Part shown: positions 15,267 through 57,934 of the stretch, one piece after another
Layout of the letters: the number at the start of each line of letters is the position of its first letter
Position numbering within the stretch: the first letter of the stretch is position 1
Virus record (IMG/VR): IMGVR_UViG_3300030390_002408
Strand: one strand, 5' to 3'
Origin: a virus
Length of the DNA stretch: 64,000 nucleotides
Notes under the pieces: generated by a model
What the model was told of the DNA's origin: nothing
Databases searched by the model: none
Seen by the model: the letters and a program-made list of their open reading frames with translations, nothing else
Program-made: the position numbers and the translations under genes

Positions 15267-15277
15267 AACTTTTATTT

Positions 15278-15448
15278 TTAATAAATAAATTCTTCTTTAA
15301 TTAATTGTTTATACCCTTCAAATTGATCTTCAGTAAGTCTACCTAATATAAAAAATGAATTTAAAGCTTGCATGGCATCTTTTTTAGTAAATGCTGTGTA
15401 AACCATTTCATCAATTTGTTCAATTCTATCAAAATCTTTTTTACTCAT
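15278..15448 (-). CDS. Small early hypothetical protein (56 aa)
   Basis: Not in the ORF track: MSKKDFDRIEQIDEMVYTAFTKKDAMQALNSFFILGRLTEDQFEGYKQLIKEEFIY; first gene after repeat copy 2. Confidence 0.65.
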   Translation of the reverse strand: MSKKDFDRIEQIDEMVYTAFTKKDAMQALNSFFILGRLTEDQFEGYKQLIKEEFIY

Positions 15449-15501
15449 AACCTTTATTTTTTGCGCTGTTTAACCTTGCAACCTTACCCCTAAATATACG
15501 A
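15446..15501 (-). repeat. 56-bp promoter + leader + start-codon direct repeat, copy 2
   Basis: Matches 13463-13518. Confidence 0.9.
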
Positions 15502-15522
15502 ACAGTATCTCGGGAAGCCTAA
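15491..15522 (-). promoter_or_regulatory. Bacteroidota-type early promoter
   Basis: TTAG-N20-TATATTTA. Confidence 0.6.
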
Positions 15523-15531
15523 TTTTTAGCC

Positions 15532-15558
15532 AAAAAAAGAGGCGCAATTTGCGCCTCT
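15532..15558 (-). terminator. Rho-independent terminator after major capsid gene
   Basis: AGAGGCGC-AAAUU-GCGCCUCU followed by a U-run. Confidence 0.9.
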
Positions 15559-15584
15559 CTTAATATTAATTTATGTGTTTAATA

Positions 15585-17222
15585 CTATAAAGTATTTAAA
15601 CCACTTACATAAATCTTACCATAGAATTCAGGACGAACCACTTTCTTAGCGTATCTAGTCAATAGACCTTTACGTGGAGTGAAAGTTTCTGGATCGTACA
15701 CTAAAGGAGTCATAATTAATGGAACATAAGGAGCAAATACAGCACCTGCTTCCAAGAATTGTCCACCTCTATAACCCATCAAGATAGTATTTTCTTTCAT
15801 GTATGGGTTTTTGTATACAGTGTATCTGTTATTGATAGCACCCGCTTTCTGAACACCAAATGCATATGAAGCTTTTGAAACATCACCATCAGAATTTGAA
15901 GCATATCCAGGAATAGATTCTAAAACAGTAGCTACTGTTGGAGAACATACTAAGAAATTAGCTCCACCTCTAAGAGTTTTCTGGTGAATAATGTTAGATA
16001 ACTTTTGCATTTTAGTTCCTAAAGTTTGGAACCATTGTCCTTGAGAGTTATAAAATCCTAAATCAGAACTTAAAACACCTGTAGATGCAATAGATTCGTT
16101 ATTTTTAGCACTCCAGTACTCAGTACCAGCAGCTGCTGATTCAATTAACATATCAAGAATTTCCATGTCTATTTCTAATGAAATATACTCACTCATGATT
16201 GAAGTTAATTCAGCTTCAGCATCCAAAGAATGGTAAGCATTCAAATCTTGAGCAAATTCTGGAGTCCAAACAGCTTTAAGCTTTCTTGTTTTCGCAACAA
16301 TAGCTTCAGATTTCATTTGAACATTAATTTCTGGAATAGAAATTGCAGTATTATCACCATTTAAGTTAGTGTTTCCGTCTTCGAAATCACCTCTGTTTTT
16401 GTCTGTTGGAGCTAATACATACTCAACAGTAACAGTAGATGCTTGAACTGGAGCTCCAACTTTTGGAACTAAAAATTCAACATTTGCTCCAGCTAATTTT
16501 GTAAAGGCTGAAACTTGGATTCCAGCAGCACCTGCTACGAAAGAACCTGTTTGTAATTGAAATGCTCTAATTGCTTCAGCATCATAGTTAGTTAAAGAAG
16601 CATGAGGTACTGCAACTACTACATGATCTCCAGCAGCAATAGAAGCTGAAAAATCACTATCAGCGTTTCCATCTGTAAACCAATCAGCAGATGAAGTTGT
16701 AGCTGTAGCTGTAGAAGAAGTATCATTAATAGAGTAGCTAAATCTTCCAGCTCCATAAGAACCACCTGTACTACCATTACCAAAAGGAGTATTTCCATCA
16801 GTATCACCATATAAAGATTTAGCAGGATTTGCATCCCCAAATGGAGATTTTGCGCTTCCATATTGGAAATCTAAGAAAAATACTAGACCTGAAGGTAAGT
16901 TCATTGGCTGAACAGAAACGAATTCTTTAGCAGCGATTTGACCAAATACCTTTCTTACTAATGGTAAAGCAACTCCAGCCCATTGAGCTCCAGTTCCTGC
17001 TGTAAAGCTTCCTGCTCCATTACCACCACCGGTGCTACTTGTTTCCATAACTAATTGCTTAGCTTGGTTTTCTAGAATCATAGACATATTGTTTTTATCC
17101 GCCTCACCATCGAGACCTTCTAACAAACCTGTCTTGTTCCATTTGTTGGCTAATCTAGCAGCATCACTCTGTAGTGACTTGTAAGGATTAGCACTTTCTA
17201 AAAGAGATTGTAATTGTGACAT
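15585..17222 (-). CDS. gp23: Major capsid protein (T4 gp23-like)
   Basis: LPLVRKVF, VSVQPMNLPSGLVF, AKTRKLKAVWTPEFAQDL, APYVPL and FTPRKGLLTRY motifs. Confidence 0.97.
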   Translation of the reverse strand: MSQLQSLLESANPYKSLQSDAARLANKWNKTGLLEGLDGEADKNNMSMILENQAKQLVMETSSTGGGNGAGSFTAGTGAQWAGVALPLVRKVFGQIAAKEFVSVQPMNLPSGLVFFLDFQYGSAKSPFGDANPAKSLYGDTDGNTPFGNGSTGGSYGAGRFSYSINDTSSTATATTSSADWFTDGNADSDFSASIAAGDHVVVAVPHASLTNYDAEAIRAFQLQTGSFVAGAAGIQVSAFTKLAGANVEFLVPKVGAPVQASTVTVEYVLAPTDKNRGDFEDGNTNLNGDNTAISIPEINVQMKSEAIVAKTRKLKAVWTPEFAQDLNAYHSLDAEAELTSIMSEYISLEIDMEILDMLIESAAAGTEYWSAKNNESIASTGVLSSDLGFYNSQGQWFQTLGTKMQKLSNIIHQKTLRGGANFLVCSPTVATVLESIPGYASNSDGDVSKASYAFGVQKAGAINNRYTVYKNPYMKENTILMGYRGGQFLEAGAVFAPYVPLIMTPLVYDPETFTPRKGLLTRYAKKVVRPEFYGKIYVSGLNTL

Positions 17223-17256: not shown

Positions 17257-18222
17257 TTAATTTTTTGTAATACCTGCGAGTTTTTGAAATCTGCTAACCA
17301 TAGCATCAGATTCAAGGATTGGCTTTTTAATTCTCTTAGGTGTTGGAGTTACTCTTGAAGCTGAACCTATCATGTTTTCAGAAATTCTTTTAGTAGTTTT
17401 TGTTTTTAAACTTTCGTTTATAGTTTCAAATACTAATTTTACTTCTTTAACTGTAGTAGCTTTATCAAAAGTTCCTAATACTTTTACCTTTTGAGATTCT
17501 GAAAGTGTTTTTGCTTTAAAGATTTTGTTTGAATAAAGTAGTTTTGCATTAAGTAAGTTAATTTCTTGTAATTCAGATTTAAGAGATTTAATTGTAGCAT
17601 AAGCTTCATTTAATTCATCTTTCATTTCTTCATCTACTTCCATTTCTTTTTCTTCAGCAATTTCTTCTTCTTCAGCTTCTTCTTCCATATCCATTTCCAT
17701 ATCCATGTCCATGTCTACTTCTTCTTCAGCTTCTTCTTCAGCTTCTTCTCCTGCTTCTAATTCACCAGATTCAACCATATCTTCAATAACATCTTCAATG
17801 AATTTTTTAAGGTCATCTTCAGACATATCTTCGATATCAATTTCATCTTCTTCCTTTTCTTCAGTTTCTTCGGCGTCATCTTCAGCTTCTTCTTCAGCAT
17901 CATCTTCTTCCTCATCCTCAGTTATACCATCTTCTTCATATGATTTGTCTGATTCTTCTAACTCGTTTAAAAGTTCTTCTAAATCCATTTCTTCATCCAT
18001 TTCTTCTGAAATGTTTTCATCAATGATTTCTTCTGTAACTTCTTCTTCTTCAGTTACATCATCTTCCTCATACGCTCCATCCATTTCTTCTAATTTCTTA
18101 GATAATGCGGCATGTAATTGAGGGTTAAATGCTTCTTCTAAAGCGATTTTTGCATTAGCGATTGCTGATTCTTTCACAGCTTTGGCATCGGCTATTGCTT
18201 CTTTTAAAAAGTCTCTGTTCAT
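17257..18222 (-). CDS. Prohead core scaffold protein (gp22-like)
   Basis: Very acidic, lies between protease and capsid genes, C-terminal RFQKLAGI. Confidence 0.8.
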   Translation of the reverse strand: MNRDFLKEAIADAKAVKESAIANAKIALEEAFNPQLHAALSKKLEEMDGAYEEDDVTEEEEVTEEIIDENISEEMDEEMDLEELLNELEESDKSYEEDGITEDEEEDDAEEEAEDDAEETEEKEEDEIDIEDMSEDDLKKFIEDVIEDMVESGELEAGEEAEEEAEEEVDMDMDMEMDMEEEAEEEEIAEEKEMEVDEEMKDELNEAYATIKSLKSELQEINLLNAKLLYSNKIFKAKTLSESQKVKVLGTFDKATTVKEVKLVFETINESLKTKTTKRISENMIGSASRVTPTPKRIKKPILESDAMVSRFQKLAGITKN

Positions 18223-18431: not shown

Positions 18432-19034
18432 TTATAAGGGGCAACTTCCTTTTGAGCATAAGATTTCTGTTAGTATGCTATTTACTTTTTCAAAAGGATT
18501 GATTTCAATTTCTTTTCCTTCTTTTATTGTTTTCATATATGAGCCTGGATTTGATGGAGTTGATACAAAATCCCAGCATAGTAATTCGAAATCATCTTGT
18601 ACTTCCATGAGTTCTCCTCGCTGTTCCAATGAACCCATACCTCGAGAAGATACACCGCAAGTAATACCGCTTTCTATTAAAGCTTTTAAAATATTTCCTG
18701 ATGGGGTAGGTAGTATTTCTATTTTACCCATTACATTATCTCCATCCCACCATACATCTTTTATATTATGAGAAACATTTTTTAAGTTTACTATTTGGGA
18801 TTCAGGATGATCTAACTCACCCATTGCTCTATTTTCTTTAATAAGCTCACTATACTTATCCATTTCTCTTTCCCATAATTCCCTAGAGTAGTATCTACCA
18901 TTTCCGTTTTTCACTTCAGCTGTAGCTAGAACACCTTCAACCATAGGATTACCCGACTCTGATAGTTTACCTTCAGATAAAAGGGTACCCACTGGTTTAA
19001 AGGATTGGGTTTCTATTAATACTTGTTTACTCAT
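18432..19034 (-). CDS. gp21: Prohead protease (T4 gp21-like)
   Basis: NGNGRYY, GELDHP, VSH, TPSG, GVSSRGMGS and DFVSTPS motifs. Confidence 0.95.
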   Translation of the reverse strand: MSKQVLIETQSFKPVGTLLSEGKLSESGNPMVEGVLATAEVKNGNGRYYSRELWEREMDKYSELIKENRAMGELDHPESQIVNLKNVSHNIKDVWWDGDNVMGKIEILPTPSGNILKALIESGITCGVSSRGMGSLEQRGELMEVQDDFELLCWDFVSTPSNPGSYMKTIKEGKEIEINPFEKVNSILTEILCSKGSCPL

Positions 19035-19040
19035 GGTATT

Positions 19041-20603
19041 TTATTTTTTATTTTTTATATAATCCATAATAGTAATGTCATTATCTCTCCCATAAGCTAC
19101 TCTATCTTTATGGGTTAAACTATCAATATCTTTTTGAGTCATACCTTCACCATCACCATCATCCATTAACTTTTGGGCCATTATTTTAAGTTGTTCTACT
19201 TTTTCATCGTTTGATATATCTTCACTTAAATCCTCATTTTCACCCATAATTTCTTGCTGTTGGTATGCTTTACCACAAGACTTTTCATACAATTTTTCAA
19301 ACCCTGCTTTTCTTTTTTCTAAAAGTTTGATTTCTTTTTGTATATTTTTGACTTTCGTCTTATCCATTAATTCTGATAAGTCTTCATCTTCAGATATTGT
19401 ATTTAATCTTAGTGTTTTAGATTCAATTATTTCAGCTAATGCTTCAATTTTTGCCTCTAATGCTACCACACCTGATGCTCTATCAATTTCAGCTAATTTA
19501 GTATCAATTGTTTCTTTTTTAGGTTTTTTCTTTTTAGGTTTTACCTTTTTAGAATCATGAGATTCAAGATTTTCTTTTACTAATTCAGGTTCTACATCAG
19601 TTGGTTTAACAATATACCCCATACCATAATATGATTTTTCACCTGGTGTAAGTGTTTGTCTAAGTCTTTTTGATTTTTGTTTTGCTTCTTCTTTATCAAC
19701 AAAACTATATAAAGGCTTATCATTACCCTGTCCAATACTACCACCTTTTCTGAAAACCCCAAAATATTTTTTATCTTCAGTAATATTTTTAGATTCTTTT
19801 AATGTTTTTTGATCATCCATCATAGTAGCTTGAACAAATGCTCTAACATTTTTTTCATCTTTAAATGGATCTTCCCATTCAAATTGATCTTCTTTTGACC
19901 ATCTAATAGCTAAATCCATTAAATCATCTTGGTTTGAATCATTGAATTCTTTCTTAGTAGTTTTTTTAACCCAATTTATAAATTGGTTTCTTGATGAACT
20001 GTTAGAAGACTCAAAATATTCTTTATTTTCTTTCAACTTAACTTTCTCCATTTGATCTGATTTGGATGCTTTTAATCCAGGATGTTCATCAGTATAACCA
20101 ACACCTCTTTCTCCAAATTGACCATCTTTAACATAATGAAGTTGATCTTTAGCTAAATTTTTAGCTACAATTTCTTTAACTTCATTAACTGTTTTTTCAG
20201 CATTTTTAGGATCTTTCATTTCAGTGTAGTATCCTTTTAAGAAAGCTTCACCATAAACGTTATTAACATCTTTTTTATCCTTATAATCGAAATTCTTTTC
20301 TTCTAAATCTGTTACTTCTTTAGTTGTTTTCTTTTCTTCAACTTTAGCTTCTTCATTAATAACATCAATATTTTCATTAAATATTTTAAACCAATCAGGT
20401 TGTTCAGTTTTACCTGTAGCTACGCCCCATATGTTTTCAGAAATAATAGACTTTTGTCTTAAGATTTTTTCAGCTTGGTTGAAAGTAGCTATATTATGGA
20501 TGTGATTAGGAAAAGCTTTTTTAGCTTCCTTTAAGAAAATTTCTTTACTTCCTTTACCTTTTTTAATTTGGTTGTATTGTTCTTGTAATGTTTTTCTTTT
20601 CAT
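19041..20603 (-). CDS. Putative internal head/core protein (modular, Lys/Glu-rich)
   Basis: Between portal and protease; VAKNLAKDQLHY motif; many [LIV]-x-E sites (LQE, ISE, INE, LKE, ITE, VKE, LSE). Confidence 0.55.
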   Translation of the reverse strand: MKRKTLQEQYNQIKKGKGSKEIFLKEAKKAFPNHIHNIATFNQAEKILRQKSIISENIWGVATGKTEQPDWFKIFNENIDVINEEAKVEEKKTTKEVTDLEEKNFDYKDKKDVNNVYGEAFLKGYYTEMKDPKNAEKTVNEVKEIVAKNLAKDQLHYVKDGQFGERGVGYTDEHPGLKASKSDQMEKVKLKENKEYFESSNSSSRNQFINWVKKTTKKEFNDSNQDDLMDLAIRWSKEDQFEWEDPFKDEKNVRAFVQATMMDDQKTLKESKNITEDKKYFGVFRKGGSIGQGNDKPLYSFVDKEEAKQKSKRLRQTLTPGEKSYYGMGYIVKPTDVEPELVKENLESHDSKKVKPKKKKPKKETIDTKLAEIDRASGVVALEAKIEALAEIIESKTLRLNTISEDEDLSELMDKTKVKNIQKEIKLLEKRKAGFEKLYEKSCGKAYQQQEIMGENEDLSEDISNDEKVEQLKIMAQKLMDDGDGEGMTQKDIDSLTHKDRVAYGRDNDITIMDYIKNKK

Positions 20604-20604
20604 T

Positions 20605-21468
20605 TTATTCTCCTTTTAATAGATCTTTTATGTCTTTAATATAATCTAAAATTAAATCTGTTGGTTTTACTACTGAATATGAGCCTGGATTGAGAGTATA
20701 GTATTCAGATGTTTCATTTTTAGCATTACTCAACATTTTATAAATATTGTTGATTTCTGTTTCAATTACATCAAATGCCTTAATTCTTTTATCTTGGTAC
20801 TCTTTAGACGTTTCTGCTTCAAATAATTGCTTTACTTCTAAACCTGATTTTTTAATTTTTTTAGGTACTAGAGTATATTTAAATTGTTTTACATAAACAT
20901 TATCTCTAACTCCATCACTACTTGCTTTAGGACCAGGACCTAATGTAGCACCTACTCCTTCTTTAACTTTTTTCTTTTTCTTTAATTTAAAAGCATAAGG
21001 GGTAGCGTATTGCATTCCTGTACCTGGAGTGAATGAAGATGCTCCTACACCCCCACCAGTTGAAGATATTTCTTCTAATTGGTTTTTAATTTGGTTGTAT
21101 TGATCTGGGTAATTTTTTCTAATATGTGTTCTGTATTTATTAAATACATCTTTTAATTTACTTGAAAGATCTCCAATATTAGTATCATCTTCACCTTCTT
21201 TAGTTTTAGAAAGAGTTGATAATGACTTAGCAGCTTTAGATAATAATTTTAAAGATTTAGAAAATGAAGCTAAAGGAACTATTTCATGAGAAATAGATTT
21301 AGTATTTTTATCAACTTTTTCTGTCTTAAAATAGGTAGTAAGATCATCATTAAAGAAATCATTTTCCATATCAATCTCACCATATTGACTGCTTAATCTT
21401 TTAATTAAGCCTGGGTCGACGTCTTTAGGTTTTAATATTTCTTTTAATTTGTATTTAAACTCTCTCAT
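20605..21468 (-). CDS. Putative internal head protein
   Basis: 287 aa; modules start after LKE/LEE/VKE/LFE (EISSTGGG...YATPYAF, EGVGATLGPGP). Confidence 0.5.
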   Translation of the reverse strand: MREFKYKLKEILKPKDVDPGLIKRLSSQYGEIDMENDFFNDDLTTYFKTEKVDKNTKSISHEIVPLASFSKSLKLLSKAAKSLSTLSKTKEGEDDTNIGDLSSKLKDVFNKYRTHIRKNYPDQYNQIKNQLEEISSTGGGVGASSFTPGTGMQYATPYAFKLKKKKKVKEGVGATLGPGPKASSDGVRDNVYVKQFKYTLVPKKIKKSGLEVKQLFEAETSKEYQDKRIKAFDVIETEINNIYKMLSNAKNETSEYYTLNPGSYSVVKPTDLILDYIKDIKDLLKGE

Positions 21469-22321
21469 TTGCTTTTGATAATTCTTCTAAAAGAGTGTGA
21501 TATTGTAGTAAGTCAACTAGATTGTCAGTTTTCATTTTATCAGTTTTACCTAACTCATGGATTAATTTAGATACTTCTTCTAATTTGATTTTAATTACTT
21601 TATCATTAGTTTTAACTATTTGACTTTTTAATTCTTCTTTAAGTTTAATAACTTCAGAATTATAAAAATTTCTTAATTTAGAAGAGCTATCAATAGACTC
21701 AATAAATTCTTTTAATATATTCTTTTGATTTGGGTTTAAGTCAGAGTATTTGTTGTTGAATTTTTCTAATAAAATTTGATATGTTAAGATGCGAAGATCT
21801 TTACCATAAGTTTTAAATTCAGTAATTACATCATCTCCTTTTTCCTTTTTAATAACTCCGGATTGGGTTATATGTTCTAAAAGGGTGGTTTTATTTTCAA
21901 TGTTTTGTTTTGCTGATGTAGGTTTGGATGAATTTGTTATCTCAATTAGAGTATATAATGAAGCTTGGGCTTTATAATCTGTGATTTTTGTTTTAAATAA
22001 ATCTTCTATGTTATAATTCTCTTTTAGGTTTTTAATTAAATTATATTTTTCATTTTTTAATCTAGTCCTATTGAGTTTTTTAGATGACTCAAGTACTGCA
22101 GTTATTACATTATTAGCTTTAACTTCACTTAGATTTTTAGCTTTAAATAAAGTTTCGTATAATTTATACTCTTTCCCCAATTCAGTGTTAACAAAATAAG
22201 TTTTTAAAGTCTTTAATGCTGGAGATTCATTGTTAGCTAAAGTATCAGCTGTGATTCTCTTTACTAGAATTTCAAATAATATTCCAGTATTCTTAAATTT
22301 TGAGTGCTTAATATACATCAA
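21455..22321 (-). CDS. Hypothetical head-morphogenesis-region protein
   Basis: KHSKFKNTGILFEIL N-terminus; follows the portal gene; late motif at 22331-22340. Confidence 0.6.
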   Translation of the reverse strand: MMYIKHSKFKNTGILFEILVKRITADTLANNESPALKTLKTYFVNTELGKEYKLYETLFKAKNLSEVKANNVITAVLESSKKLNRTRLKNEKYNLIKNLKENYNIEDLFKTKITDYKAQASLYTLIEITNSSKPTSAKQNIENKTTLLEHITQSGVIKKEKGDDVITEFKTYGKDLRILTYQILLEKFNNKYSDLNPNQKNILKEFIESIDSSSKLRNFYNSEVIKLKEELKSQIVKTNDKVIKIKLEEVSKLIHELGKTDKMKTDNLVDLLQYHTLLEELSKANERV

Positions 22322-26183: not shown

Positions 26184-26485
26184 TTATTCTTTCGGTATTT
26201 TTTTTCAAAGTCATTAATAGTATCTTTAGCAGATTTAATATCTTTGATTTTAGATTTTGTTTCTTTGATTTTGGTAGAAGTTTTTTGGATATTATCTTTT
26301 ACTTCTTTTTTTTCTTCTTCAATTTTAGAAGTTTTTTCTTGGATTACTTTTACTTCTTCAATTTTACCCTCAATCTTATCTTCAAAATATACTTTGGTTT
26401 TTGATTTTTTCTTTCTAAAAATAAATAAAAGAATAGCTCCTATAAAACCCCCAACCCATAATATAGTTCTCCAAATCTTTTTCAT
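26180..26485 (-). CDS. N-terminally anchored membrane coiled-coil protein (possible i-spanin-like)
   Basis: TM ILWVGGFIGAILLFIF then Lys-rich coiled coil; ATGA overlap with the next gene. Confidence 0.45.
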   Translation of the reverse strand: MKKIWRTILWVGGFIGAILLFIFRKKKSKTKVYFEDKIEGKIEEVKVIQEKTSKIEEEKKEVKDNIQKTSTKIKETKSKIKDIKSAKDTINDFEKKYRKNK

Positions 26486-27021
26486 TATAGTAATTTTTCT
26501 AATTCTGTCTTAATTTTACCTAATTCTTTTAATCTTTTTAGATGTTTTTCTTTTTCATCACCTTTAGCTTTTTTAAACTTATTTAAAACTGATTTTATTT
26601 CTTTTGCGTTTTGAGATAATTCTTCTTGATTTTTAACTAAAGGATCTTTATTACTTTTTTTAGCTCCCTTAGATGCTGCTTTATCTGCTTCATCATCATC
26701 TATATCTTCATTTAAATCATAAGATCCTAAATTATCTAGGAATCCTTGTTTTAACCCTTCAAAATAAGCTTTAAAATCTGGGTTGTTTTGGAATTTATCT
26801 CTTATTTCAGCAAATATAATTTCTCCAGCTTCATACCCCATTTCTTCAATATCAGCTAAACTTATATTTTCATATTCATTAACTAACTCTTTTGTTTTTT
26901 CTAGCTCATCATTAAATTCTCCTTGAGCATTAGTTTTATTATTAATTTCTTCAGCTGATTCTTCTGATAATACTGAAATTATTTCTTCTTTAATGTATTC
27001 TTTTAAGTCTGATTGCTTCAT
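26485..27021 (-). CDS. Putative internal head protein
   Basis: MKQSDLKEYIKEEIISVLSEE leader; VNE/LNE-bounded modules; late-like motif at 27038-27047. Confidence 0.55.
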   Translation of the reverse strand: MKQSDLKEYIKEEIISVLSEESAEEINNKTNAQGEFNDELEKTKELVNEYENISLADIEEMGYEAGEIIFAEIRDKFQNNPDFKAYFEGLKQGFLDNLGSYDLNEDIDDDEADKAASKGAKKSNKDPLVKNQEELSQNAKEIKSVLNKFKKAKGDEKEKHLKRLKELGKIKTELEKLL

Positions 27022-29351: not shown

Positions 29352-30332
29352 TTAATATGGTCTAACAGCAGTCACGTTTGTAATAATTTCTCCAGATTTT
29401 TTATCTTTTACTTTATATGTTTCATCATAGGAACTATCAATATCTAAATAATCACCTACCTCCCATTCATCATATGGAGTATCATATTTTCTAGAATCTA
29501 AAGTATATTTAACTTCTTCATTATCCAATTGAATAAATCCTGGTTTTCCAAATCGTTGTTCACCTTCGTCATCACCATAGCCTTTTCTTCTTCTATTATA
29601 ATATTCTTTTACTTTAATTTTTTTTTTACCTTCTTTAAGTTTAGTAGATGCCGATTTAAGAGCTTTATCAAATTTACTTTCATCCATATTACGAAGAACT
29701 CTTTGGTTTTGAGCATTATAATCTTTACCTTTTACAAATTCAATATCTTTTACATCAAATTCCTCTTCATCTTGACTTCTTGAGGAGTATCTATTGAATT
29801 TATCATAACGAGAAGGGTAATTAGGTTCATCATACTCATCATCCATTCTACGACCAGGTCCATGTCTACCTTCTTCTAAATTAGGGTCAAAATCAGGATC
29901 CATAAAATCAGGTTCAGTATTTTCTTCTTCCCACTGTTCTATTTTTTCACTTCTTAATTTATTAATTCCTTCGATGATGCTATCAATAAATTTGTTAATA
30001 TCTTCTTTACTTTCAAATTCAGTATACATCATATCATCAGCAATCTGATCAATAAGATAACCTGCATTTTGGTCTACAATATAATCATCAGGATTTTCTT
30101 TTAAAGAAGCTTTTCTTTCATCCCCAAAAACTAGTTCGTTAAATTCTTCTTTGGACATTTTACCACTGAAATAATCTCTTTCAGCTTGTTCCATTTCAGC
30201 TTTTTTCTGTGCTCTCTTATCTATTTCTGATCCTGATCTTGGAGGCATTCCAGCAGCCATTTCTTCAGCTTCTCTATCTTCTTTTATTAGTTTGCCTTCT
30301 TTAAGGTATTTTTTGAAATTGAATTCGCCCAT
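29352..30332 (-). CDS. Putative internal head protein (modular, acidic)
   Basis: Leader MGEFNFKKYLKEGKLIKE; modules bounded by LKE/LEE/VKE; late motif at 30355-30364. Confidence 0.6.
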   Translation of the reverse strand: MGEFNFKKYLKEGKLIKEDREAEEMAAGMPPRSGSEIDKRAQKKAEMEQAERDYFSGKMSKEEFNELVFGDERKASLKENPDDYIVDQNAGYLIDQIADDMMYTEFESKEDINKFIDSIIEGINKLRSEKIEQWEEENTEPDFMDPDFDPNLEEGRHGPGRRMDDEYDEPNYPSRYDKFNRYSSRSQDEEEFDVKDIEFVKGKDYNAQNQRVLRNMDESKFDKALKSASTKLKEGKKKIKVKEYYNRRRKGYGDDEGEQRFGKPGFIQLDNEEVKYTLDSRKYDTPYDEWEVGDYLDIDSSYDETYKVKDKKSGEIITNVTAVRPY

Positions 30333-30468: not shown

Positions 30469-30900
30469 TTAATTTTCCTGTGATGCAAGAATATTACCAA
30501 CATCCTTAATAAAATCATCAATGAAAAAATCCATAAATCCAACATCCCATCCAAAATTATCAACTTCTATGTAATCATCTTTCATTTCAGATGTTAAGGC
30601 AAATTTCCAATAAAAGAATTTGTTTGCGATTTTTTTAGTTAACTTAATTATAGATAAATTCACTTTATAATCATAAACATTATTGTATCCACCATCATAT
30701 ATAATTTCAAATCTATTTTTATCAATACGTTTAACATTGAAGTCTTTGTCTTTATTTAGTGATAATAATAAATCAACAACATCTTCTTTGTTATCAGTAA
30801 ATGGGATATTATATGAACTATCTTCATCTTTTCCTTCGTTTAAAAATTCTTTTAATAGCTTACCTTCAGCTAAATACTTTTTTAAATTAAAATCTCCCAT
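30469..30900 (-). CDS. Putative internal head protein
   Basis: Leader MGDFNLKKYLAEGKLLKEFLNE, paralogous to the leader of 29352..30332. Confidence 0.6.
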   Translation of the reverse strand: MGDFNLKKYLAEGKLLKEFLNEGKDEDSSYNIPFTDNKEDVVDLLLSLNKDKDFNVKRIDKNRFEIIYDGGYNNVYDYKVNLSIIKLTKKIANKFFYWKFALTSEMKDDYIEVDNFGWDVGFMDFFIDDFIKDVGNILASQEN

Positions 30901-31156
30901 TTTTATTTATTTTTATTTTTAATTTTCCTGTTCCTTTAATAACTCTATGCCATTCATGCTTTGCGATAAATATACAACCCTCTATTGGGGAAGGCAAGCA
31001 GTTGTCCAATTGTAGTTTCCAGTCTGTTTCGCCTATTACTTCAATTATTCTTTCCTCATTATCACGATGCCATAGTAAGTGAATAGGATCTATATCATCT
31101 CCAAATTCACGAATAGTAAAATTATCTTTAGATTCTATGTCAGTGTAAGGTTTCAT
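30887..31156 (-). CDS. Small cupin-fold protein
   Basis: WHRD...E and HEWHRV His-rich cupin-like motifs. Confidence 0.6.
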   Translation of the reverse strand: MKPYTDIESKDNFTIREFGDDIDPIHLLWHRDNEERIIEVIGETDWKLQLDNCLPSPIEGCIFIAKHEWHRVIKGTGKLKIKINKNGRF

Positions 31157-31635
31157 TTTGTTTTACCCCATTTTTTACCTTTACCTTTATCTTTACATTT
31201 TGAAGGTGTAGGTCTACATGATGGATATTTTGCTCTTTTTTCTCCTTCTTTTCTACCACAGGCTTTATATTTCATTTTGCCTGTTTTTTTATCTTTTCTT
31301 CCAGTATTACAATCTACCCATCCTCCTTCTTTACCTTTAGGACCTGAGCGTTTAAACCATTTATGTAAAGATTCTTCAATATCCTTGTAGATTTGTTCTT
31401 TTTTTAAATCTTTAAGTTTTGAGTATCCTGAACCATAAGGAGCAGCTTTACCTGATTGAGGATTATTTGTTTCTTTTAAACCTTTCCAAATAGATCCTTT
31501 TCTACATCTAACTACAGCACCTGATTTGTAAGCTGAAGGTTTATCAAATTTACGATCAGCAATACGAAGACATCTGTCTCGCTTTTTTTTCTTCTCTGTA
31601 AGTATTTCTTTTACTATTTTCTTTATTCTATCCAT
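31153..31635 (-). CDS. Lys-rich, Cys-containing putative head protein
   Basis: Leader IKKIVKEILTE; modules DRC...PSAYKSGAVVRCRK and LHKWF...WVDC...ACGR...YPSCRP. Confidence 0.55.
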   Translation of the reverse strand: MDRIKKIVKEILTEKKKKRDRCLRIADRKFDKPSAYKSGAVVRCRKGSIWKGLKETNNPQSGKAAPYGSGYSKLKDLKKEQIYKDIEESLHKWFKRSGPKGKEGGWVDCNTGRKDKKTGKMKYKACGRKEGEKRAKYPSCRPTPSKCKDKGKGKKWGKTK

Positions 31636-31636: not shown

Positions 31637-32374
31637 TTACCAAAATCCTGAGAATGATGATTTTAAACCTAATAATTTAGCATATCTTGGTAGTCTACAA
31701 GACCAATATCCTGCTTTTGTTCTATCTTTCTTTTGAGAGCATTTATGGCGAGCAGCAAAAGCTGTTCTTGCTTTTTTATCATTGATTTTAGCTCTTAAGC
31801 CTCCAGACCCAAATCTAACTGTTTTTACTTTTTTAGTTTTAGGATCTTTTACATAAACCTTATATGCTTTACCTCCTGATGAGTCACGCATTGGTTTTCC
31901 AATTGGTTTATTTGCATTTTTACCTTTTTTCTTTTTCTTTTTAGCTTCATTTAAAGACATATTATCTATTTCATCGCGAACCCATTCTTTTTCACCGGGT
32001 CCTAATTGATCATAATCCATACCAAATTCTGATTGGGCTATTTCATCATAATCCATTTCATTTAATTGAATAGGAAAATCTAATGGAACTTTTTTACCTT
32101 CAAACATACCAAAATGGCCTAAGTCAGTTTCAGTTAACATTTCTAAATCATCACCTACTACATCAATAATTCCCCTAGAGTATAAAGATCTTGCTTCAGC
32201 TATTAAATTAAAGTAAGATTCAGAACCCGCACGGTATAAATGGTCTGTTAGCGGCCTATCATTGTCTATATGGTATTTTAAACCCTCAGACAATATCTCC
32301 TTCGGAGCTACGTTTTCATTGAGTACTAACAAAGTACTTTTAGTTTTACAAGTATTACATCCGCAATTACACAT
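31637..32374 (-). CDS. Modular putative head protein with basic C-terminal domain
   Basis: MCNCGCNTC N-terminus; three LNE boundaries; C-terminal YKVYVK..VRFG..ARTAFAARHKC..AGYWSC; late motif at 32389-32398. Confidence 0.55.
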   Translation of the reverse strand: MCNCGCNTCKTKSTLLVLNENVAPKEILSEGLKYHIDNDRPLTDHLYRAGSESYFNLIAEARSLYSRGIIDVVGDDLEMLTETDLGHFGMFEGKKVPLDFPIQLNEMDYDEIAQSEFGMDYDQLGPGEKEWVRDEIDNMSLNEAKKKKKKGKNANKPIGKPMRDSSGGKAYKVYVKDPKTKKVKTVRFGSGGLRAKINDKKARTAFAARHKCSQKKDRTKAGYWSCRLPRYAKLLGLKSSFSGFW

Positions 32375-36616: not shown

Positions 36617-37201
36617 TTATTTTATAATTCCTGCAATTTTTAACATTTTTTTCCTTTCGTATAAATCTTCCATACTCATATCTTCTTCTAGGTCTTGGGA
36701 TTTAACCCAAAATTCATCCATCTTACCTAACATAGCAGAATCTGCTTTTCTTCTAAGATATATCCTATCACCCTCTTTTCTAGTAATTACATGGTCTTCA
36801 CCTTTATATGTTACTACCTCTTCCTCAAAATCTCCTTCAATTTCTTCATCTAATGACTCTTCTCCTGAACCTACAACATGAGATCTAGTAAAGAAAGTAA
36901 TTGAGTTTCCAATTTGATTGATTAACTTTTCATCACCTAATTCTTTAGCTGCTATTAAAGCTGATTCAAGACTGTCTTGTACTTTCTTTTCATCACCTGT
37001 TATTCCTGAGGCATCCGATGGTGGGGTTTCTTCAACTTCGATATCTTCAACTTCTTCAGTATCTTCAATATCTTCAATACCTTCAATTTCGATATCTTCT
37101 TCTTCTTTATCTTCTTTGTCGTCTTTAGCTTCAGTAACCTCTAATTGATTTTCCTCAAGCATAGCTTGACGTATCATTTCTTTTAATTCAGATTTCTTCA
37201 T
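36617..37201 (-). CDS. Acidic putative core/scaffold-like head protein
   Basis: MKKSELKEMIRQAMLEE leader; C-terminal KMLKIAGII resembles the scaffold's RFQKLAGI; late motif at 37222-37231. Confidence 0.55.
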   Translation of the reverse strand: MKKSELKEMIRQAMLEENQLEVTEAKDDKEDKEEEDIEIEGIEDIEDTEEVEDIEVEETPPSDASGITGDEKKVQDSLESALIAAKELGDEKLINQIGNSITFFTRSHVVGSGEESLDEEIEGDFEEEVVTYKGEDHVITRKEGDRIYLRRKADSAMLGKMDEFWVKSQDLEEDMSMEDLYERKKMLKIAGIIK

Positions 37202-37819: not shown

Positions 37820-38251
37820 TTATTTTTTATAACCTCTAGATAGAGTATTTAATTTGCCTTCTGTTTTTGGAGGTTGTTTAGGATCTATAACTTTAGGTTG
37901 TATGTTATCGATTAAACCTTGTATATAATCAATTTGAATTGTTAAGTGACCCTTATTAATTTTACTATTATCTATCATGTGTTTTGTGAAGGGGACAAGA
38001 GGTTTTAGCATTTCAGATTTAGGTAAAATAGAAGGAATTATATTATTTTTTAAATCTTCAATACACCTAATGTAACACTCTAAATCTTCTCTTGAATATA
38101 TATTTTCAATATATCTTTCTTTTACTACATTTAAAAATTTTTCAATATCTATCATTACTTTTTCTTCTTCAGTAAATGATGTTATTGGTTTAGGATTATG
38201 AACATTATCACCTCCCCTATAACCACCTGCTAGTTTATTTAATTTACTCAT
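37820..38251 (-). CDS. Hypothetical protein
   Basis: 143 aa; similar N- and C-terminal peptides (KLNKLAGGY / KLNTLSRGY). Confidence 0.55.
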   Translation of the reverse strand: MSKLNKLAGGYRGGDNVHNPKPITSFTEEEKVMIDIEKFLNVVKERYIENIYSREDLECYIRCIEDLKNNIIPSILPKSEMLKPLVPFTKHMIDNSKINKGHLTIQIDYIQGLIDNIQPKVIDPKQPPKTEGKLNTLSRGYKK

Positions 38252-41200
38252 AACCCTAATTCTTTTAATTGTCTTATAGTATCACTAGCTGATGTATGTA
38301 ATATTCCTACTCCCCCACTTGCTATCCATTGATTAATGTTATTTTCTCTATCATCAATTAATATAGCATTTTCTTGAGCATAGTTTTTCTTATTTCTTGA
38401 AAATGCTAGTTTTAAAGGTGTACCTGGTAAGTTATTTTTAACCCATAATCTTTTACCTAATCTAGACTCATTATTAACTGAAGGAGATGATAGTAGAATT
38501 GGTTTGTATTTACTAATATAATCCCAATATTCTTTTCCATCTTCCATCCAGGGCATTCCAACCCAAAATTTAACTCCAATTTGATTATCAATTAGATCCC
38601 AGAATTTCTTTTTTCCATTTTCTTTTTCATATTCAGAAGGAGAAACACCATTTGAGAATTTTTTAAATCTTCCATCAAAGTTAGTAATAACTCCATCCAT
38701 ATCAGAGTATATGATGTATTCCATATCTTTTCCTTTGGGTGAAGATACGACCTCTTCTTCAGGTATCCTAGTTTTTCCTAATTCTTCTTCTAAACCTTGT
38801 GCTAATTCTCTTGCATATTGATTTAAACCAAATGGATCTTTATTTTTCTTTTCATTTAATTTAAGCATTGAATCTATTTTTCCTTGAATTAAGGAGGTGT
38901 TAAATGAAAGAGGAAAATGAAGTTGAGATATAATTTTTTGAATTCTCTTATTATCTTTAGGGTTGTGGGATTTATAATTCATAGCACTTGAAGTACTATT
39001 TTTATCTAACATGTTTTTATAGTTTTCAACATATTCAGGAGTAACTATATCATCAACTATTTGGGGAATATTTTTTTTATCTTCATCCCACATATTCTCA
39101 ACCTCTTTATAAGACAAAATTCTAAACTTTTTTTGATTTCTTGATGAATTATGAATTTTTAATTTAATTAAATGTTTAAATTTATCTATATTACTAAGTT
39201 TTTTTAATAGTTTAAATACCTTTAAATATTCAAGATCAGATATTTGGATTTCTTTAACATAAGGAGTTAAGGGGAGAGATGAAGTTTTAATTAATTCTTC
39301 TCTTTCATCCATAGAAAACCATTTTTTTCCTTTTTTACGATGAGATTTGTTTTTAGTCTTTGCAAAAAGAATATCTTTTGTTGGGGTGATTTTAATATTA
39401 TTGGAAATTTTATCCCCATCTAAAGTAATCCTTGCATCTATATCTTCCCATTGAGAATCTCCACCAGCTAACTTAAAATTATAAAATTTGGAAACAACAT
39501 CTAAATTTTTATCCCTAGTTGTAGATATTCCTCCACTTATATTTGAAGCTTTAATATATTCATCTTTTAAAATTTTAAAAATTCCTGTATTCCCTTCAGG
39601 ATTTAAAATAGTAAAGTGATATAAATCACCTACTTGTTTAGCTTCATTTATATTTTCATTTAATACTGTATCAGTATAACCTCTAAAAGCTAAATTACCA
39701 TCCTGATAAGCTTCAGCTTCAATTGAAGTTAAATGATCATCTTCTTGTGTGTTAGTTGTAGTAATATCTTCTAATCTACCTTCTAAATTTTGAATATGGT
39801 GTATCATTTCATGAGCAAATGATCTTACTATATCTTTTGGATGTCTTCCTTCAGTAAATAAAACTATAGTGTTAGTATTAGGATCATAGTAAGCAGTTTT
39901 ACCAAAGAAATTTTTAGCATTATCTTGATTACCATGCTTGAATATTACTTTAGGTAAAGGAATAATATTCATTTTTTGATTTAACATATATTTAGTTAAA
40001 TCTTTTATTTGTTGTTTATAATCTATATTTTTAGAGTATGTAGCATTTTCATTAATTGAAGGTAAACTTAATGCTTTAGTCCTTTTAGACCATATATTAA
40101 TAATTTCCTTTTTTTCTTCAGATGTTAAATTTTGTAAATCTAAGTAATCATCAATTACATTCCTTAATGGTTTTTTTTCTTTTTTAGCTCTAAAATACAT
40201 TCCTTGTAAATTAGCATCTATTTCTTTTTCTAATTTGAAGTAATCTGATTTAGGTAAAAGTTCAGCATCAATCATATTCCTTAATGTTGAATCCTTAGCC
40301 ATGTATTTGCCTGGTTTTTCTTGGAATCCTTCACCATGAGTTAGATGTTCAATCTCATGACGTATAATATCTTTTAAATCCATAGAAATTTTACTCCAAT
40401 GTTTAGGTAAAAATTCAGGATCAATTTCAAATTCTACTGATATTGAGTCTTCTTCACTATAAGCTCCTCCATCAGTTTTATAATCATTGAAATTTGGGGA
40501 TTGCTTTAATGTAGCTTTGATTTCAATTTCATCATCTTCAAATGTGTAAGTGTTATTAAATTCAATTAATTCATTAGATATATTAGATTTCCAATTATTA
40601 AAGATATCACTTGAAATACGATTTGATATTGTATCATATCTTCCTTCGTTTAATGATTCTTTTTTTAATTCTGGGTGGAATTTCATCCAAACTTCTTCAG
40701 CATCGGGTTTAATTGACTCTCCATCAACCACTACTTCTACAGGGTAGACTTTAGCATCTTCACCATACCAATAATTTATTTTATATCCTCCTTCTTCTGT
40801 TAATTCTACAATTAAACCTCTATCATAATCTTCACTTTCAGCTTGTAAAAATATTTTTTTACCTCTAGGAAGTACTAAAGAAGTCTTATCTAAAATATCT
40901 TCGTTTAGGGGTTGTTTTTCATCTCCTACAGGGACTTGTCTAATATCTTTAGTATCATCAAAGTTTGGTGGGTAAGGATTATCAAACCCCCCAATTAATA
41001 TATTATCATTTTCTATAGAAAGATCAAATGTTGATGGTGATACATTTATAAAATAATTAAGGTAATAGTCTATCCTATCTTTTAAATCTAAAGACTCATT
41101 TAATGTTTTATTTTCGTCTACTGAAGGTGATAGAATTTGAAATACTTCTTCAATGTCATCTTTAGATAATTCAGATGGGAGGTACTTTTTAAATTCTTCT

Positions 41201-41694
41201 ACATTTCGGGTTTTGAGAGCTAATCTAGCATTAGTTCCACTCATTCCTTTATTATTAGTAACTATAGGTTTTAAAACCATATTAGGATATTTTTCCATAC
41301 CCTTTGATCTACTTCCCATATCTTTAAAATCATCTTCATTATCCTTTCTAGCTCCTATTACCCAATAAATAGATTGACCTGGGTTAGATTTAGCGTAGCT
41401 ATAAATTTCTCCAATTGGTGGTTTTTTAGAAGGGATTATTTCAACCTTCATTGGAAGATATTTAGTATAAATTTCCCACACTAAAACAGCTTCAGCTTGG
41501 TCTACCCCATCTCTTTCTTTAGATCCTACTAATATTTTTAAATTAGTTATTTCTGGGTTTTGTTGTAAGGCTGTTTTTACTACTTCAAAATGACCTCCAG
41601 TAGGGGGTTTGAATCCTCCACCATATAAAGCTACTACTTCTTCTTCGCCTTCATTTAAAATACTATCTACTAAGTATTGAGTTAATTTATTCAT
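38248..41694 (-). CDS. Polyvalent multidomain protein: HxGH-class nucleotidyltransferase, two zincin metallopeptidase-like domains, ART-like domain, HAD nucleotidase
   Basis: GGFKPPTGGH...MSGT; HEIEH..E; HEMIHH..E; LYHFT..ISTTR..EREE; SDMDGV..ILSS..K..LIDD. Confidence 0.75.
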   Translation of the reverse strand: MNKLTQYLVDSILNEGEEEVVALYGGGFKPPTGGHFEVVKTALQQNPEITNLKILVGSKERDGVDQAEAVLVWEIYTKYLPMKVEIIPSKKPPIGEIYSYAKSNPGQSIYWVIGARKDNEDDFKDMGSRSKGMEKYPNMVLKPIVTNNKGMSGTNARLALKTRNVEEFKKYLPSELSKDDIEEVFQILSPSVDENKTLNESLDLKDRIDYYLNYFINVSPSTFDLSIENDNILIGGFDNPYPPNFDDTKDIRQVPVGDEKQPLNEDILDKTSLVLPRGKKIFLQAESEDYDRGLIVELTEEGGYKINYWYGEDAKVYPVEVVVDGESIKPDAEEVWMKFHPELKKESLNEGRYDTISNRISSDIFNNWKSNISNELIEFNNTYTFEDDEIEIKATLKQSPNFNDYKTDGGAYSEEDSISVEFEIDPEFLPKHWSKISMDLKDIIRHEIEHLTHGEGFQEKPGKYMAKDSTLRNMIDAELLPKSDYFKLEKEIDANLQGMYFRAKKEKKPLRNVIDDYLDLQNLTSEEKKEIINIWSKRTKALSLPSINENATYSKNIDYKQQIKDLTKYMLNQKMNIIPLPKVIFKHGNQDNAKNFFGKTAYYDPNTNTIVLFTEGRHPKDIVRSFAHEMIHHIQNLEGRLEDITTTNTQEDDHLTSIEAEAYQDGNLAFRGYTDTVLNENINEAKQVGDLYHFTILNPEGNTGIFKILKDEYIKASNISGGISTTRDKNLDVVSKFYNFKLAGGDSQWEDIDARITLDGDKISNNIKITPTKDILFAKTKNKSHRKKGKKWFSMDEREELIKTSSLPLTPYVKEIQISDLEYLKVFKLLKKLSNIDKFKHLIKLKIHNSSRNQKKFRILSYKEVENMWDEDKKNIPQIVDDIVTPEYVENYKNMLDKNSTSSAMNYKSHNPKDNKRIQKIISQLHFPLSFNTSLIQGKIDSMLKLNEKKNKDPFGLNQYARELAQGLEEELGKTRIPEEEVVSSPKGKDMEYIIYSDMDGVITNFDGRFKKFSNGVSPSEYEKENGKKKFWDLIDNQIGVKFWVGMPWMEDGKEYWDYISKYKPILLSSPSVNNESRLGKRLWVKNNLPGTPLKLAFSRNKKNYAQENAILIDDRENNINQWIASGGVGILHTSASDTIRQLKELGL

Positions 41695-42489
41695 CTATTT
41701 TAAAAATTGATTAATTCTCATTTGGGCTTCTTCTTTAGACATAGTATATTCAATTACATCATCTATAAACTCATCATTTAACATTGATTGAATTTCACCT
41801 CTATCTTTGGCATTATTTTCTTCTGATTTCTTCTGTTGAGCAGGTGTTTTAGGTTTAGTTCCTTTGGGGGTAAATGGGGTTAGATATTTTTGTATTATTT
41901 TATCTATATCCTTAATCTTATCATCTAATGTATTGGCAACTGCTACAAAATTAGAGCCAAATAAATTGGCATATTTTTCTAGGTTTTGGGTTACACTCTT
42001 CCAAGTTCTCATTACAATAGCTGGAGCTAAACTTCTATCTTCACCTTTGGATTTTTCAAATCTATTTTGATTTTGTTGGAGTGATCTTTCTAAATCCGTA
42101 TAAACATAAAGCATAAATACATTGTATCCTGCTTCTTCTAACTGTAATTTTAATTCTGAAGTTTGTTTAAATGAAGCTGCTGTACCATCTAGTATAAATG
42201 ACTCTTTACCTTCAATTGTAGATTGAATATTACCTTTAAATTCTTTATTAGCATCAGCCATGGATTTAGCTTGACTACTTCTTTCTTCAGGGGTTGCATT
42301 TTTTAAATCTAATGTAATGTTAGCTTTTTTTAGCTTATCTATAAAGATACTATCAATATTTAATATTTTTATTCCCCCTAAATCTAAACCTTTAAGTACA
42401 TATCCTTTACCTGCTCCCGGGGCCCCAGCTAATATAATTGCTTTGGGGTTACCTTGAGATTCTTTTAGTAATTGAACTAAACTTATCAT
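41695..42489 (-). CDS. Zeta-toxin-like / AAA_33 P-loop kinase
   Basis: LAGAPGAGKG, NID, ILDGT, GYNVFMLYV and R motifs; leader MISLVQLLKE. Confidence 0.75.
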   Translation of the reverse strand: MISLVQLLKESQGNPKAIILAGAPGAGKGYVLKGLDLGGIKILNIDSIFIDKLKKANITLDLKNATPEERSSQAKSMADANKEFKGNIQSTIEGKESFILDGTAASFKQTSELKLQLEEAGYNVFMLYVYTDLERSLQQNQNRFEKSKGEDRSLAPAIVMRTWKSVTQNLEKYANLFGSNFVAVANTLDDKIKDIDKIIQKYLTPFTPKGTKPKTPAQQKKSEENNAKDRGEIQSMLNDEFIDDVIEYTMSKEEAQMRINQFLK

Positions 42490-42501: not shown

Positions 42502-42536
42502 TTATAAATATACGAAAGGGTATGGAGGGAAACAAA
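42502..42536 (-). promoter_or_regulatory. Composite host-type + late promoter
   Basis: TTTG-N20-TATATTTA, overlapping ATATTTATAA. Confidence 0.6.
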
Positions 42537-57174: not shown

Positions 57175-57581
57175 TATTGTAATAATATATTTATGTTATC
57201 TTCAATCCCGAATAATGAGATTTCATATGATAGTAAAAAATTTACTTCATTAAGATCAGGCTCATTTTGAAATTCAATTTGTTTAACGTTTACTGTAGGG
57301 AAATATAATGCAATTTCCTCTTGAATTTTAAATTTTAAATCATCTAAAGTTGAATCTGTGATGTTTTCAAATAAAATAGATTTTAAATTAGCACCAAAAT
57401 TAGGGTTAAATACTCTTTCTCCCTTATTTGTTAATAAATAATTAATTAAATTTGCCTTAATTTGATCTTTAGTTTGATATGTGGGAACAAAAACAGCATC
57501 CCCATTTAAAGGAAAACCAAACCCTATAGCTTTTCTAGCTTCAGTGTCAATTGGAAATTTATTTGAAATTATTTTTGCCAT
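57174..57581 (-). CDS. gp25: Baseplate wedge / sheath initiator (T4 gp25-like)
   Basis: LLTNKGERVFNPNFG motif. Confidence 0.9.
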   Translation of the reverse strand: MAKIISNKFPIDTEARKAIGFGFPLNGDAVFVPTYQTKDQIKANLINYLLTNKGERVFNPNFGANLKSILFENITDSTLDDLKFKIQEEIALYFPTVNVKQIEFQNEPDLNEVNFLLSYEISLFGIEDNINILLQ

Positions 57582-57934
57582 TATCGACCCATTAAATTTG
57601 TAATTTGATCCATACTTACACTACCTCCCCCTAATGAACCATTAATGGCATCAGCACCAGGTTGTGGGTTAAAAGATTGGACATCATTAGATGTAAAATT
57701 TAACTGTGTACCATTTAAAGCTTCTTCATACTTAGCTCTTTTATCAGCTAAACTAACTTCGGGTTGGGGTGAAGTTAAATGTTGTTGTTGTTGTTGGTTA
57801 TATTGAATATTTTCAGTTATGGGTGAAATATTCTTTTGGGATTTGAAGGATTCAAATAAAATGTCTTTCAACTCTTCTTGAATTGCTTCCTTAACTGCTG
57901 ATTTAACTATTTTTTTAAATTCTGATGATTTCAT
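57581..57934 (-). CDS. Hypothetical late protein
   Basis: MKSSEFKKIVKSAVKEAIQEE leader; late motif at 57945-57954. Confidence 0.55.
   Translation of the reverse strand: MKSSEFKKIVKSAVKEAIQEELKDILFESFKSQKNISPITENIQYNQQQQQHLTSPQPEVSLADKRAKYEEALNGTQLNFTSNDVQSFNPQPGADAINGSLGGGSVSMDQITNLMGR

Follow-up and report, generated by a model that had tools for sequence, protein, structure and literature searches.

A gene in a 64,000-nucleotide stretch of viral DNA (IMG/VR record IMGVR_UViG_3300030390_002408; this whole stretch is referred to as the window) appears to encode a cargo polyprotein for a T4-like phage head. The open reading frame (ORF), P0001, occupies positions 38248-41694 of the minus strand and specifies 1148 amino acids, a 132-kDa chain with seven modules. 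As read from the sequence, every joint is the tripeptide [LI]NE, one form of the L/I-x-E site of T4-type prohead proteases; T4 gp21 cleaves after L/I-x-E (PMC9026906). It is proposed that the polyprotein probably enters the capsid, is cleaved into its parts and is then delivered together with the DNA, since every joint bears the motif of the phage's own head protease. We infer that head-protease cleavage is the best-supported mechanism because the motif fits the T4 rule, an S77 protease is encoded in the window, the scaffold contains LNE and stand-alone homologs of one module bear leaders. Taken as a whole, the reading we favour, at somewhat better than even confidence, is of a cargo polyprotein that is targeted to the capsid and cleaved by the prohead protease. 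The phage is an uncultured marine T4-like myovirus (window 30% G+C, nearly all genes on the minus strand); the Baltic Flavobacterium phages vB_FspM_immuto, called immuto below, are its closest kin and the only ones in culture.

An earlier reading of this DNA, made from the sequence only, gave the coordinates and length of the ORF correctly and no strand; the minus strand is added here as a correction, the plus-strand reading being ruled out by a frame riddled with stops. That reading also claimed eight [LI]NE motifs at module boundaries and nowhere else. The motifs do end at residues 15, 200, 265, 350, 549, 680, 684 and 948 with no others present; amino acid composition would give 1.28, and eight are reached in just 0.02% of 5000 shuffled sequences (p about 2e-4). 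The related tripeptides [LI]ND, [LI]DE, [LI]QE and [LI]SE have zero occurrences each in P0001. The family comprises more than 2200 matches of 735 to 1780 residues, nearly all metagenomic. Across 123 database proteins, made up of the query, 120 homologs and two proteins of immuto, 477 [LI]NE were observed where 92 were expected, and in 69 independent IMG/VR polyproteins the figures were 201 and 44.5. The middle residue of [LI]xE most enriched in these 69 was N (4.5-fold), with W next (3.1-fold). At the DNA level the eight joints of P0001 are six different 9-mers, so a DNA-level repeat as their origin was rejected; because the codons differ between the sites, it is the peptide and not the DNA that is under selection. 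Only two other proteins of the window are enriched in [LI]NE, the acidic scaffold and a 245-residue ORF (31637-32374). The latter has three LNE where 0.09 are expected, and its sole PHROG match begins at residue 144, directly after the third LNE.

That the motifs are module boundaries was borne out by the ends of homology between family members. In all-versus-all BLAST, the starts of high-scoring segment pairs (HSPs) peak exactly at the L of [LI]NE (13.7 per site, background about 0.2) and their ends fall most often precisely on its E (6.1 per site). With [LI]N[^E] and [^LI]NE as control tripeptides, no peak was seen at E and the start position showed a weak one at best, and [LI]xE with a middle residue other than N gave a small peak. 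When peaks were tallied without reference to any motif, LNE was the commonest tripeptide by far at HSP starts (166 of 947, plus 25 INE) and again the commonest at HSP ends (103 of 892), followed by tripeptides such as IKE, LEE, LQE and VKE which fit the wider [LIV]xE pattern. In P0001 itself, 43% of internal HSP starts fall within intervals at six sites that make up 4% of the protein, and 57 HSPs begin exactly at L348.

A comparison of orthologs for whole-module changes, suggested with the earlier reading, revealed extensive shuffling. The module order of the query is kept in only 16 of 121 retrieved proteins; elsewhere modules are reordered, duplicated, inserted or lost, become genes of their own or are fused. 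Immuto has the two HExxH modules in the opposite order to the query, an extra N-terminal module joined through LAE↓ (the arrow marks a joint) ahead of the nucleotidyltransferase, and an NT5C module that is encoded separately and begins with the leader MKKVMGNLADLLLEE. In one IMG/VR record (L072) the kinase encoded upstream is fused in frame to the polyprotein. Among the modules of relatives are those of ADP-ribosyltransferase (ART), superoxide dismutase, plastocyanin-like and kinase type. Some of the homologs P0080, P0023 and P0061 have an Fe/Mn superoxide dismutase or a copper-binding plastocyanin-like (PF00127) module in the chain, which would be unusual candidate cargo.

The head and tail genes of the window encode the gp23 capsid protein, the S77 protease, portal, large terminase, tail sheath, tail tube and baseplate wedge. 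The GELxHP and GVSSRG motifs of the protease align with T4 gp21, GVSSRG being identical in the two, and the same alignment places an LIE site near its N-terminus. Five large records of related phages were tested, and each contains an S77 protease. The acidic scaffold, in the gp22 position, contains three LNE against 0.42 expected, and these sites correspond to LAE in immuto and to LNE, LAE or LRE in five related phages. The immuto scaffold homolog gp067 (L002:6627-7868) carries the RefSeq label 'DNA polymerase phi-like protein', which is probably a low-complexity acidic artefact.

Further evidence comes from leaders. In the AlphaFold model the first 15 residues of P0001 form a helix (2-13) followed by coil. 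A leader of this type heads the HAD module in L003 and L004, and a similar one is found on the kinase encoded upstream, where it reads MISLIxLLKE↓ in most phages and the unrelated MDNFNLKKYLTEGSLLKE↓ in L039. Judged from these sequences, leaders are portable between modules and genes. Searching 1.8 billion representatives with module 6 returned about 30 stand-alone homologs of 144-216 residues, matched from query residue 1-2 and from their own residue 10-17. They have variable leaders of 9-17 residues before a conserved [AG]KQVGxLYHFT, for example MKTYKELLRE↓AKQVG, MKTFKQFISE↓AKQVG, MIKLIDILNE↓AKQVG and MIKLLDILNEINE↓AKQVG; the equivalent joint in the polyprotein is LNENINE↓AKQVG. Read by eye, position P1 of the leader is E in 28 of 29 homologs and P3 is L or I in 25 of 29. 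The doubled site also occurs in the leaders of two of them (P0125 and P0127), as LNEINE↓AKQVG. This stand-alone ART-fold family may be a new class of injected internal proteins.

The stand-alone proteins P0125-P0158 (metagenomic; loci L091 and L093) form a DarT/Tpt1-like family without a Pfam model. Both of the contigs examined are T4-like, and in both the gene adjoins T4-type replication genes (gp32, UvsW). In L093 it lies two genes downstream of a gene with a weak Acb1 match. A tblastn search with the stand-alone protein P0157 against 50,697 cultured phage records found no match.

The features of the window are listed in Table 1. Seven modules are present in the chain, five of them with assigned folds or motifs, and the modules evolve independently. 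No family above threshold was found for modules 2-6 when Pfam was searched with the whole protein and with single modules. Most of the earlier module map held, with a nucleotidyltransferase fold at 16-200, an independently mobile unit at 266-350, zincin-like matches at 550-680, an ART fold at 685-~850 and a C-terminal HAD nucleotidase. Module 1 is modelled well (pLDDT, the predicted local distance difference test score, 75-90 across residues 20-190), and Foldseek with residues 18-191 found PPAT and NaMN/NMN adenylyltransferases (E 1.5e-6, TM-score to target 0.72-0.80). G34 and H35 of its PTGGH stretch are invariant, and the match to Pfam CTP_transf_like reached only E 0.043. By its modelled structure, module 1 is a Rossmann-like HIGH-motif nucleotidyltransferase fold with an (H/T)xGH motif. 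Module 2 is confined to the closest homologs, has low confidence in the AlphaFold model and gave no tblastn match in 80 IMG/VR loci. Module 3 gave tblastn matches in 12 loci, several of which span the whole unit (residues 1-85), and in P0023 and P0080 it is placed elsewhere in the chain. Module 7 matches phrog_2643 (9.1e-24) and, by tblastn, the NT5C genes of many phages; D998-M-D1000-G-V is invariant, and PF06941 is recorded on the homolog P0012.

Table 1. Features of the polyprotein gene, its neighbours and the head genes in the window.
Feature	Position	Strand	Description
Leader	41650..41694	-	residues 1-15, MNKLTQYLVDSILNE, predicted amphipathic helix ending LNE
Module 1	41095..41649	-	residues 16-200, HIGH-motif nucleotidyltransferase, PPAT/NMNAT-like, ends LNE-200
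Module 2	40900..41094	-	residues 201-265, small acidic unit, ends LNE-265
Module 3	40645..40899	-	residues 266-350, small acidic mobile unit, ends LNE-350
Module 4	40048..40644	-	residues 351-549, RHEIEH domain (candidate zincin), ends INE-549
Module 5	39655..40047	-	residues 550-680, HEMIHH zincin-like metallopeptidase, ends LNE-680
Tandem second site NINE	39643..39654	-	residues 681-684
Module 6	38851..39642	-	residues 685-948, ART-fold domain (685-~850) and helical tail, ends LNE-948
Conserved 22-residue peptide	38785..38850	-	residues 949-970, KKNKDPFGLNQYARELAQGLEE, between LNE↓ and LEE↓
Module 7	38251..38784	-	residues 971-1148, HAD-type 5'(3')-deoxyribonucleotidase (NT5C), DMDGV motif
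Zeta-toxin-like P-loop kinase	41695..42489	-	abuts polyprotein upstream; leader MISLVQLLKE; Pfam Zeta_toxin 1.5e-18
Promoter-like motif	42503..42510	-	TATTTATA(A), coding-strand reading, 13 nt upstream of kinase start
14 further intergenic motif sites	1954, 3612, 5712, 12015, 12787, 22332, 24230, 30356, 32390, 37223, 47512, 57946, 60436, 63295	-	coding strand
Major capsid protein (gp23 family)	15585..17222	-	Pfam Gp23 4.4e-76, from residue 79
Acidic scaffold (gp22 position)	17257..18222	-	LNE at residues 87, 206, 270
Prohead protease (gp21-type, Peptidase_S77)	18432..19034	-	PF03420 1.2e-30, phrog_207 1.8e-59
Leader-bearing ORFs	31637-32374, 31153-31635, 30469-30900, 29352-30332, 36617-37201, 26485-27021, 57581-57934	-	leader pattern

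The two modules that had been called zincins fared differently. Module 5 gave weak but consistent zincin matches, with DUF6782, Peptidase_M91, PipA and MPTase-PolyVal found in 6 to 18 of 25 members, all under the curated cut-offs. MPTase-PolyVal (PF18818) was found in 6 of the 25 (best E 0.025, below threshold) and the other zincin families at E 1e-4 to 4e-3. Module 4 is a candidate zincin, known only from its RHEIEH motif: R445, H446, E447, E449 and H450 are invariant, and no Pfam match and no PDB sequence match was obtained. Profile searches of both HExxH modules against PDB sequences gave noise only.

The full-length AlphaFold model, built on a shallow alignment, has a pLDDT of 52 and is confident in three regions, 18-191, 353-540 and 990-1148. 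None of the eight motifs is in a segment that reaches pLDDT 50, and four of them border the first two of these regions. The motifs had been predicted to stand at domain edges and none lies inside a confident domain core, which is a weak test with 55% of the model below pLDDT 50.

Module 6 folded alone from 32 relatives gave a better model (pLDDT 79.7, predicted template modelling score 0.73) that is ordered from its first residues, the first block reaching 91. A full scan of PDB representatives with VIA-align placed Tpt1 at the top (Z 9.9, root mean square deviation 2.7, 109 residues aligned), followed by four DarT entries at Z 7.7-8.8 (8.8, 8.3 and 7.9 leading) and then by Scabin and pertussis toxin. 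Rows 1-8 and 10-13 of the scan are named ADP-ribosyltransferases and row 9 is the uncharacterised protein CC0527. Foldseek alone was weak (best E 0.027), and the ESM Atlas returned only unnamed viral clusters for module 6, all below 0.8. In 33 module 6 sequences, H693, S724-x-T726-R727 and E797-x-E799-E800 show conservation of 90% or more, which makes them candidates for the catalytic NAD-binding triad ([H/R], [S/Y], E). ART-PolyVal (PF18760) did not match P0001, even at E 10 with module 6 alone; the homolog P0066 carries PF18760 as a separate and different module. On the model, module 6 is an ADP-ribosyltransferase fold with a split beta-sheet, DarT/Tpt1-like, and its nearest kin are the nucleic-acid-modifying branch of ARTs, not T4 Alt. 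The earlier label of 685-948 as ART-like is therefore supported at the level of fold, given that Tpt1, DarT, Scabin and pertussis toxin top the PDB scan, and applies to 685-~850, the rest being a helical tail.

Between modules 6 and 7 lies a 22-residue peptide (KDPFGLNQYARELAxGLEE) present in 113 of the 120 homologs, in more than one copy in only two. It precedes different modules in different homologs and is absent from all other ORFs of the window. The peptide may serve as an internal docking or targeting signal.

The polyprotein gene is preceded by that of the Zeta-toxin-like kinase. In relatives whose polyprotein is leaderless, the stop codon of the leader-bearing kinase overlaps the polyprotein start (ATGA). 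A coding-strand motif, (A)TATTTATAA(c)AAAA, is found 13-24 nt upstream of 15 start codons, and the genes behind it include portal, tail tube, head-tail adaptor, PhoH and the kinase-polyprotein operon; the neighbouring primase has no TATTTATAA motif upstream. On the coding strand, TATTTATAA corresponds to the T4 late box TATAAATA in reverse complement. It is probably the late promoter of this phage. Overall enrichment of the T4 late promoter TATAAATA was also considered and rejected (29 matches against 21.5 expected).

The proposed course of events is as follows. The operon, comprising the kinase, the polyprotein and two small genes, would be expressed late from the promoter-like motif common to structural genes. 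The precursor would enter the prohead core via its leader, perhaps also via the 22-residue peptide or the leader-bearing kinase, and the activated prohead protease would then cut after each joint Glu. The predicted products are seven proteins of 7.5 to 31 kDa and three short peptides. The peptides would exit the shell, while the seven proteins would be retained in the head and ejected into the host with the DNA, to act immediately on nucleotides or nicotinamide adenine dinucleotide (NAD), nucleic acids and host proteins. Because all modules share the same short joint, it is proposed that they can be gained, lost, reordered, split and fused without losing delivery. A bolder version is put forward only tentatively: in T4-like marine phages any domain flanked by the tripeptide could be spliced in or out of the chain, the 22-residue peptide would supplement the N-terminal leader by docking the precursor to the prohead core, and the payload would be a pre-made anti-defence kit. 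Docking through an excisable internal peptide would explain the leaderless variants. The DarT/Tpt1-like ART, the NMNAT-like enzyme, the nucleotidase and the two zincins would act before phage gene expression.

Several observations weigh against the cargo polyprotein. The N-terminal leader is absent in 43 of 120 homologs, which begin at the nucleotidyltransferase core and retain a 5-fold LNE excess, and seven homologs are without both the leader and the 22-residue peptide. T4 capsid LTE65↓A aligns with VME↓T here and with VSE↓A in immuto, so the predicted capsid maturation site is not LNE. The structural test of the linkers is weak because the full-length model is poor. The immuto polyprotein has no LNE at all, its joints reading LAE, LPE and MAE, whereas LNE or INE is present in both the protease and the scaffold of immuto; preference at P2 thus does not follow protease identity cleanly, and no clean co-variation of P2 between scaffold and polyprotein was found across phages. 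The polyprotein gene adjoins replication genes (primase, exonuclease) and lies outside the head cluster.

The last two points, together with the annotation of the immuto homolog as an NMNAT metabolic gene, would fit an uncut multi-enzyme fusion that works as one cytoplasmic chain, with [LI]NE as a helix-capping or linker motif or as the relic of a leader from gene fusion. This is considered unlikely. A roughly 5-fold enrichment of one tripeptide exactly at the breakpoints of more than 180 proteins, encoded by varying codons, calls for selection at the peptide level. An uncut chain would have little use for a removable leader or for doubled sites (LNENINE), and the occurrence of unrelated enzymes in any order speaks against a channelled multi-enzyme.

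Cutting of the joints by the embedded zincins themselves (HEMIHH, RHEIEH), before or after delivery and with the prohead protease uninvolved, is judged quite improbable. Autoprocessing by zincins was proposed by Iyer et al. 2017 (PMC5512222) and would agree with the weak MPTase-PolyVal, M91 and PipA-type peptidase matches and with joints that are kept in leaderless variants. The HEMIHH zincin was found in every relative retrieved and two HExxH modules in most, a further point against the prohead protease; however, retrieval was biased to module 5 and, since HEMIHHIQ was among the patterns searched for, selection accounts for part of the zincin's universal presence. The motif fits the known S77 specificity while no zincin specificity is known, [LI]xE also follows the leaders of the zincin-free stand-alone ARTs, the kinase and the immuto NT5C, and LNE sites are shared with the scaffold. 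Least probable, and by our estimate very unlikely, is that a prohead-type protease cuts the chain into products that are not injected, being core fillers that are expelled or proteins acting late in the producing cell: the T4 core proteins gp22, gp67 and gp68 are indeed cut at many L/I-x-E sites and exit the head (PMC9026906), and modules 2 and 3 are small and acidic, but the modules are mostly folded enzymes of 15-31 kDa, similar in size to the head-retained T4 IPIII and Alt, and a payload of ART and nucleotidase resembles the known injected protein Alt.

The head-protease reading finds its closest parallel in the T4 internal proteins, from which a 10-residue capsid-targeting sequence, MKTYQEFIAE, is removed at an L/I-x-E site (PMC8442874). 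In common with IPI, IPII, IPIII and Alt are the short amphipathic leader ending in L/I-x-E and the setting of gp21-type protease, gp23 and acidic scaffold; leaders of the stand-alone module 6 proteins nearly match the MKTYQEFIAE pattern, and Alt likewise brings an ART-fold enzyme into the cargo. In contrast, T4 cargo genes are single-domain and cut once or twice, whereas here seven unrelated modules have a site at every joint. Alt belongs to the R-S-E clade while the ART here is DarT/Tpt1-like, P2 is strongly biased to Asn here, and one third of relatives are without an N-terminal leader. None of IPI-III or Alt was named in the Pfam and PHROG scans or the phage tblastn, no direct comparison having been made. 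The resemblance to T4 internal proteins and Alt would lie in mechanism alone.

With at least two unrelated effector domains in one phage polypeptide, P0001 is a polyvalent protein, a class for which DNA-coupled delivery and zincin-mediated release of domains were proposed (Iyer, Burroughs, Anand, de Souza, Aravind 2017, PMC5512222). Its unrelated effectors (zincin, ART, nucleotide enzymes) and extensive shuffling are typical of that class. It differs in that the 2017 work had the domains released by embedded zincins and described no junction motif, while here each joint bears a tripeptide that fits the head protease; also, the ART-PolyVal and MPTase-PolyVal Pfam models stay below threshold here. 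Polyproteins of eukaryotic RNA viruses, too, are translated in one piece and then divided into enzymes at a recurring short motif, but the protease proposed here would act in trans inside the prohead, there is no homology, and the purpose would be cargo delivery rather than genome expression. In giant phages (phiKZ gp175, 201phi2-1, SPN3US gp245) a gp21-related prohead protease cuts many head-internal proteins after the Glu of a short motif. These cleavages, at (S/A/G)-x-E, mostly remove propeptides from structural or inner-body proteins. The cut sites, in contrast to those proposed here, are not joints between shuffled enzymes of one chain. Redundant neighbouring prohead-protease sites do occur in giant phages (PMC9026906).

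In the literature searched, no paper ties polyvalent proteins to prohead-protease sites or capsid-targeting sequences. New here are the residue-exact breakpoints, the leader-bearing stand-alone ART family, the DarT/Tpt1-like fold, the leaderless class, the internal peptide and the lack of DNA-level conservation at the joints. If the cargo polyprotein is real, the polyvalent-protein idea of 2017 becomes a defined and testable mechanism in which sites, protease and products are predictable from sequence, and the T4 rule of leader plus gp21 site is widened from small single proteins to enzyme polyproteins. It would also show phages exchanging injected effectors as cassettes, would make thousands of unannotated marine phage modules probable first-minute effectors, and would provide a natural design rule for packing several foreign proteins in T4-type capsids.

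Some further observations were made in the window. ARAGORN found no tRNA in the whole of it. Two gene-free gaps, 13286-13829 (544 nt) and 15267-15584 (318 nt), stand out in an otherwise tightly packed genome. Between portal and protease, at 19041-22321 on the minus strand, three ORFs (520, 287 and 288 residues) matched no family and occupy the position of the T4 core proteins gp67/gp68; in immuto, the counterpart of the 520-residue ORF bears an N-terminal ...HFIAE↓A site resembling the T4 capsid-targeting sequence. More ORFs of the window have amphipathic leaders ending hydrophobic-x-Glu, for example MGDFNLKKYLAEGKLLKEFLNE, MKKSELKEMIRQAMLEE and MDRIKKIVKEILTE (Table 1); such leader-tagged proteins, candidates for head cargo, appear to form a whole set in this phage. 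In one of these ORFs, 31153-31635, the leader is followed by a module that recurs as the first module of P0156, where it stands upstream of an ART domain.

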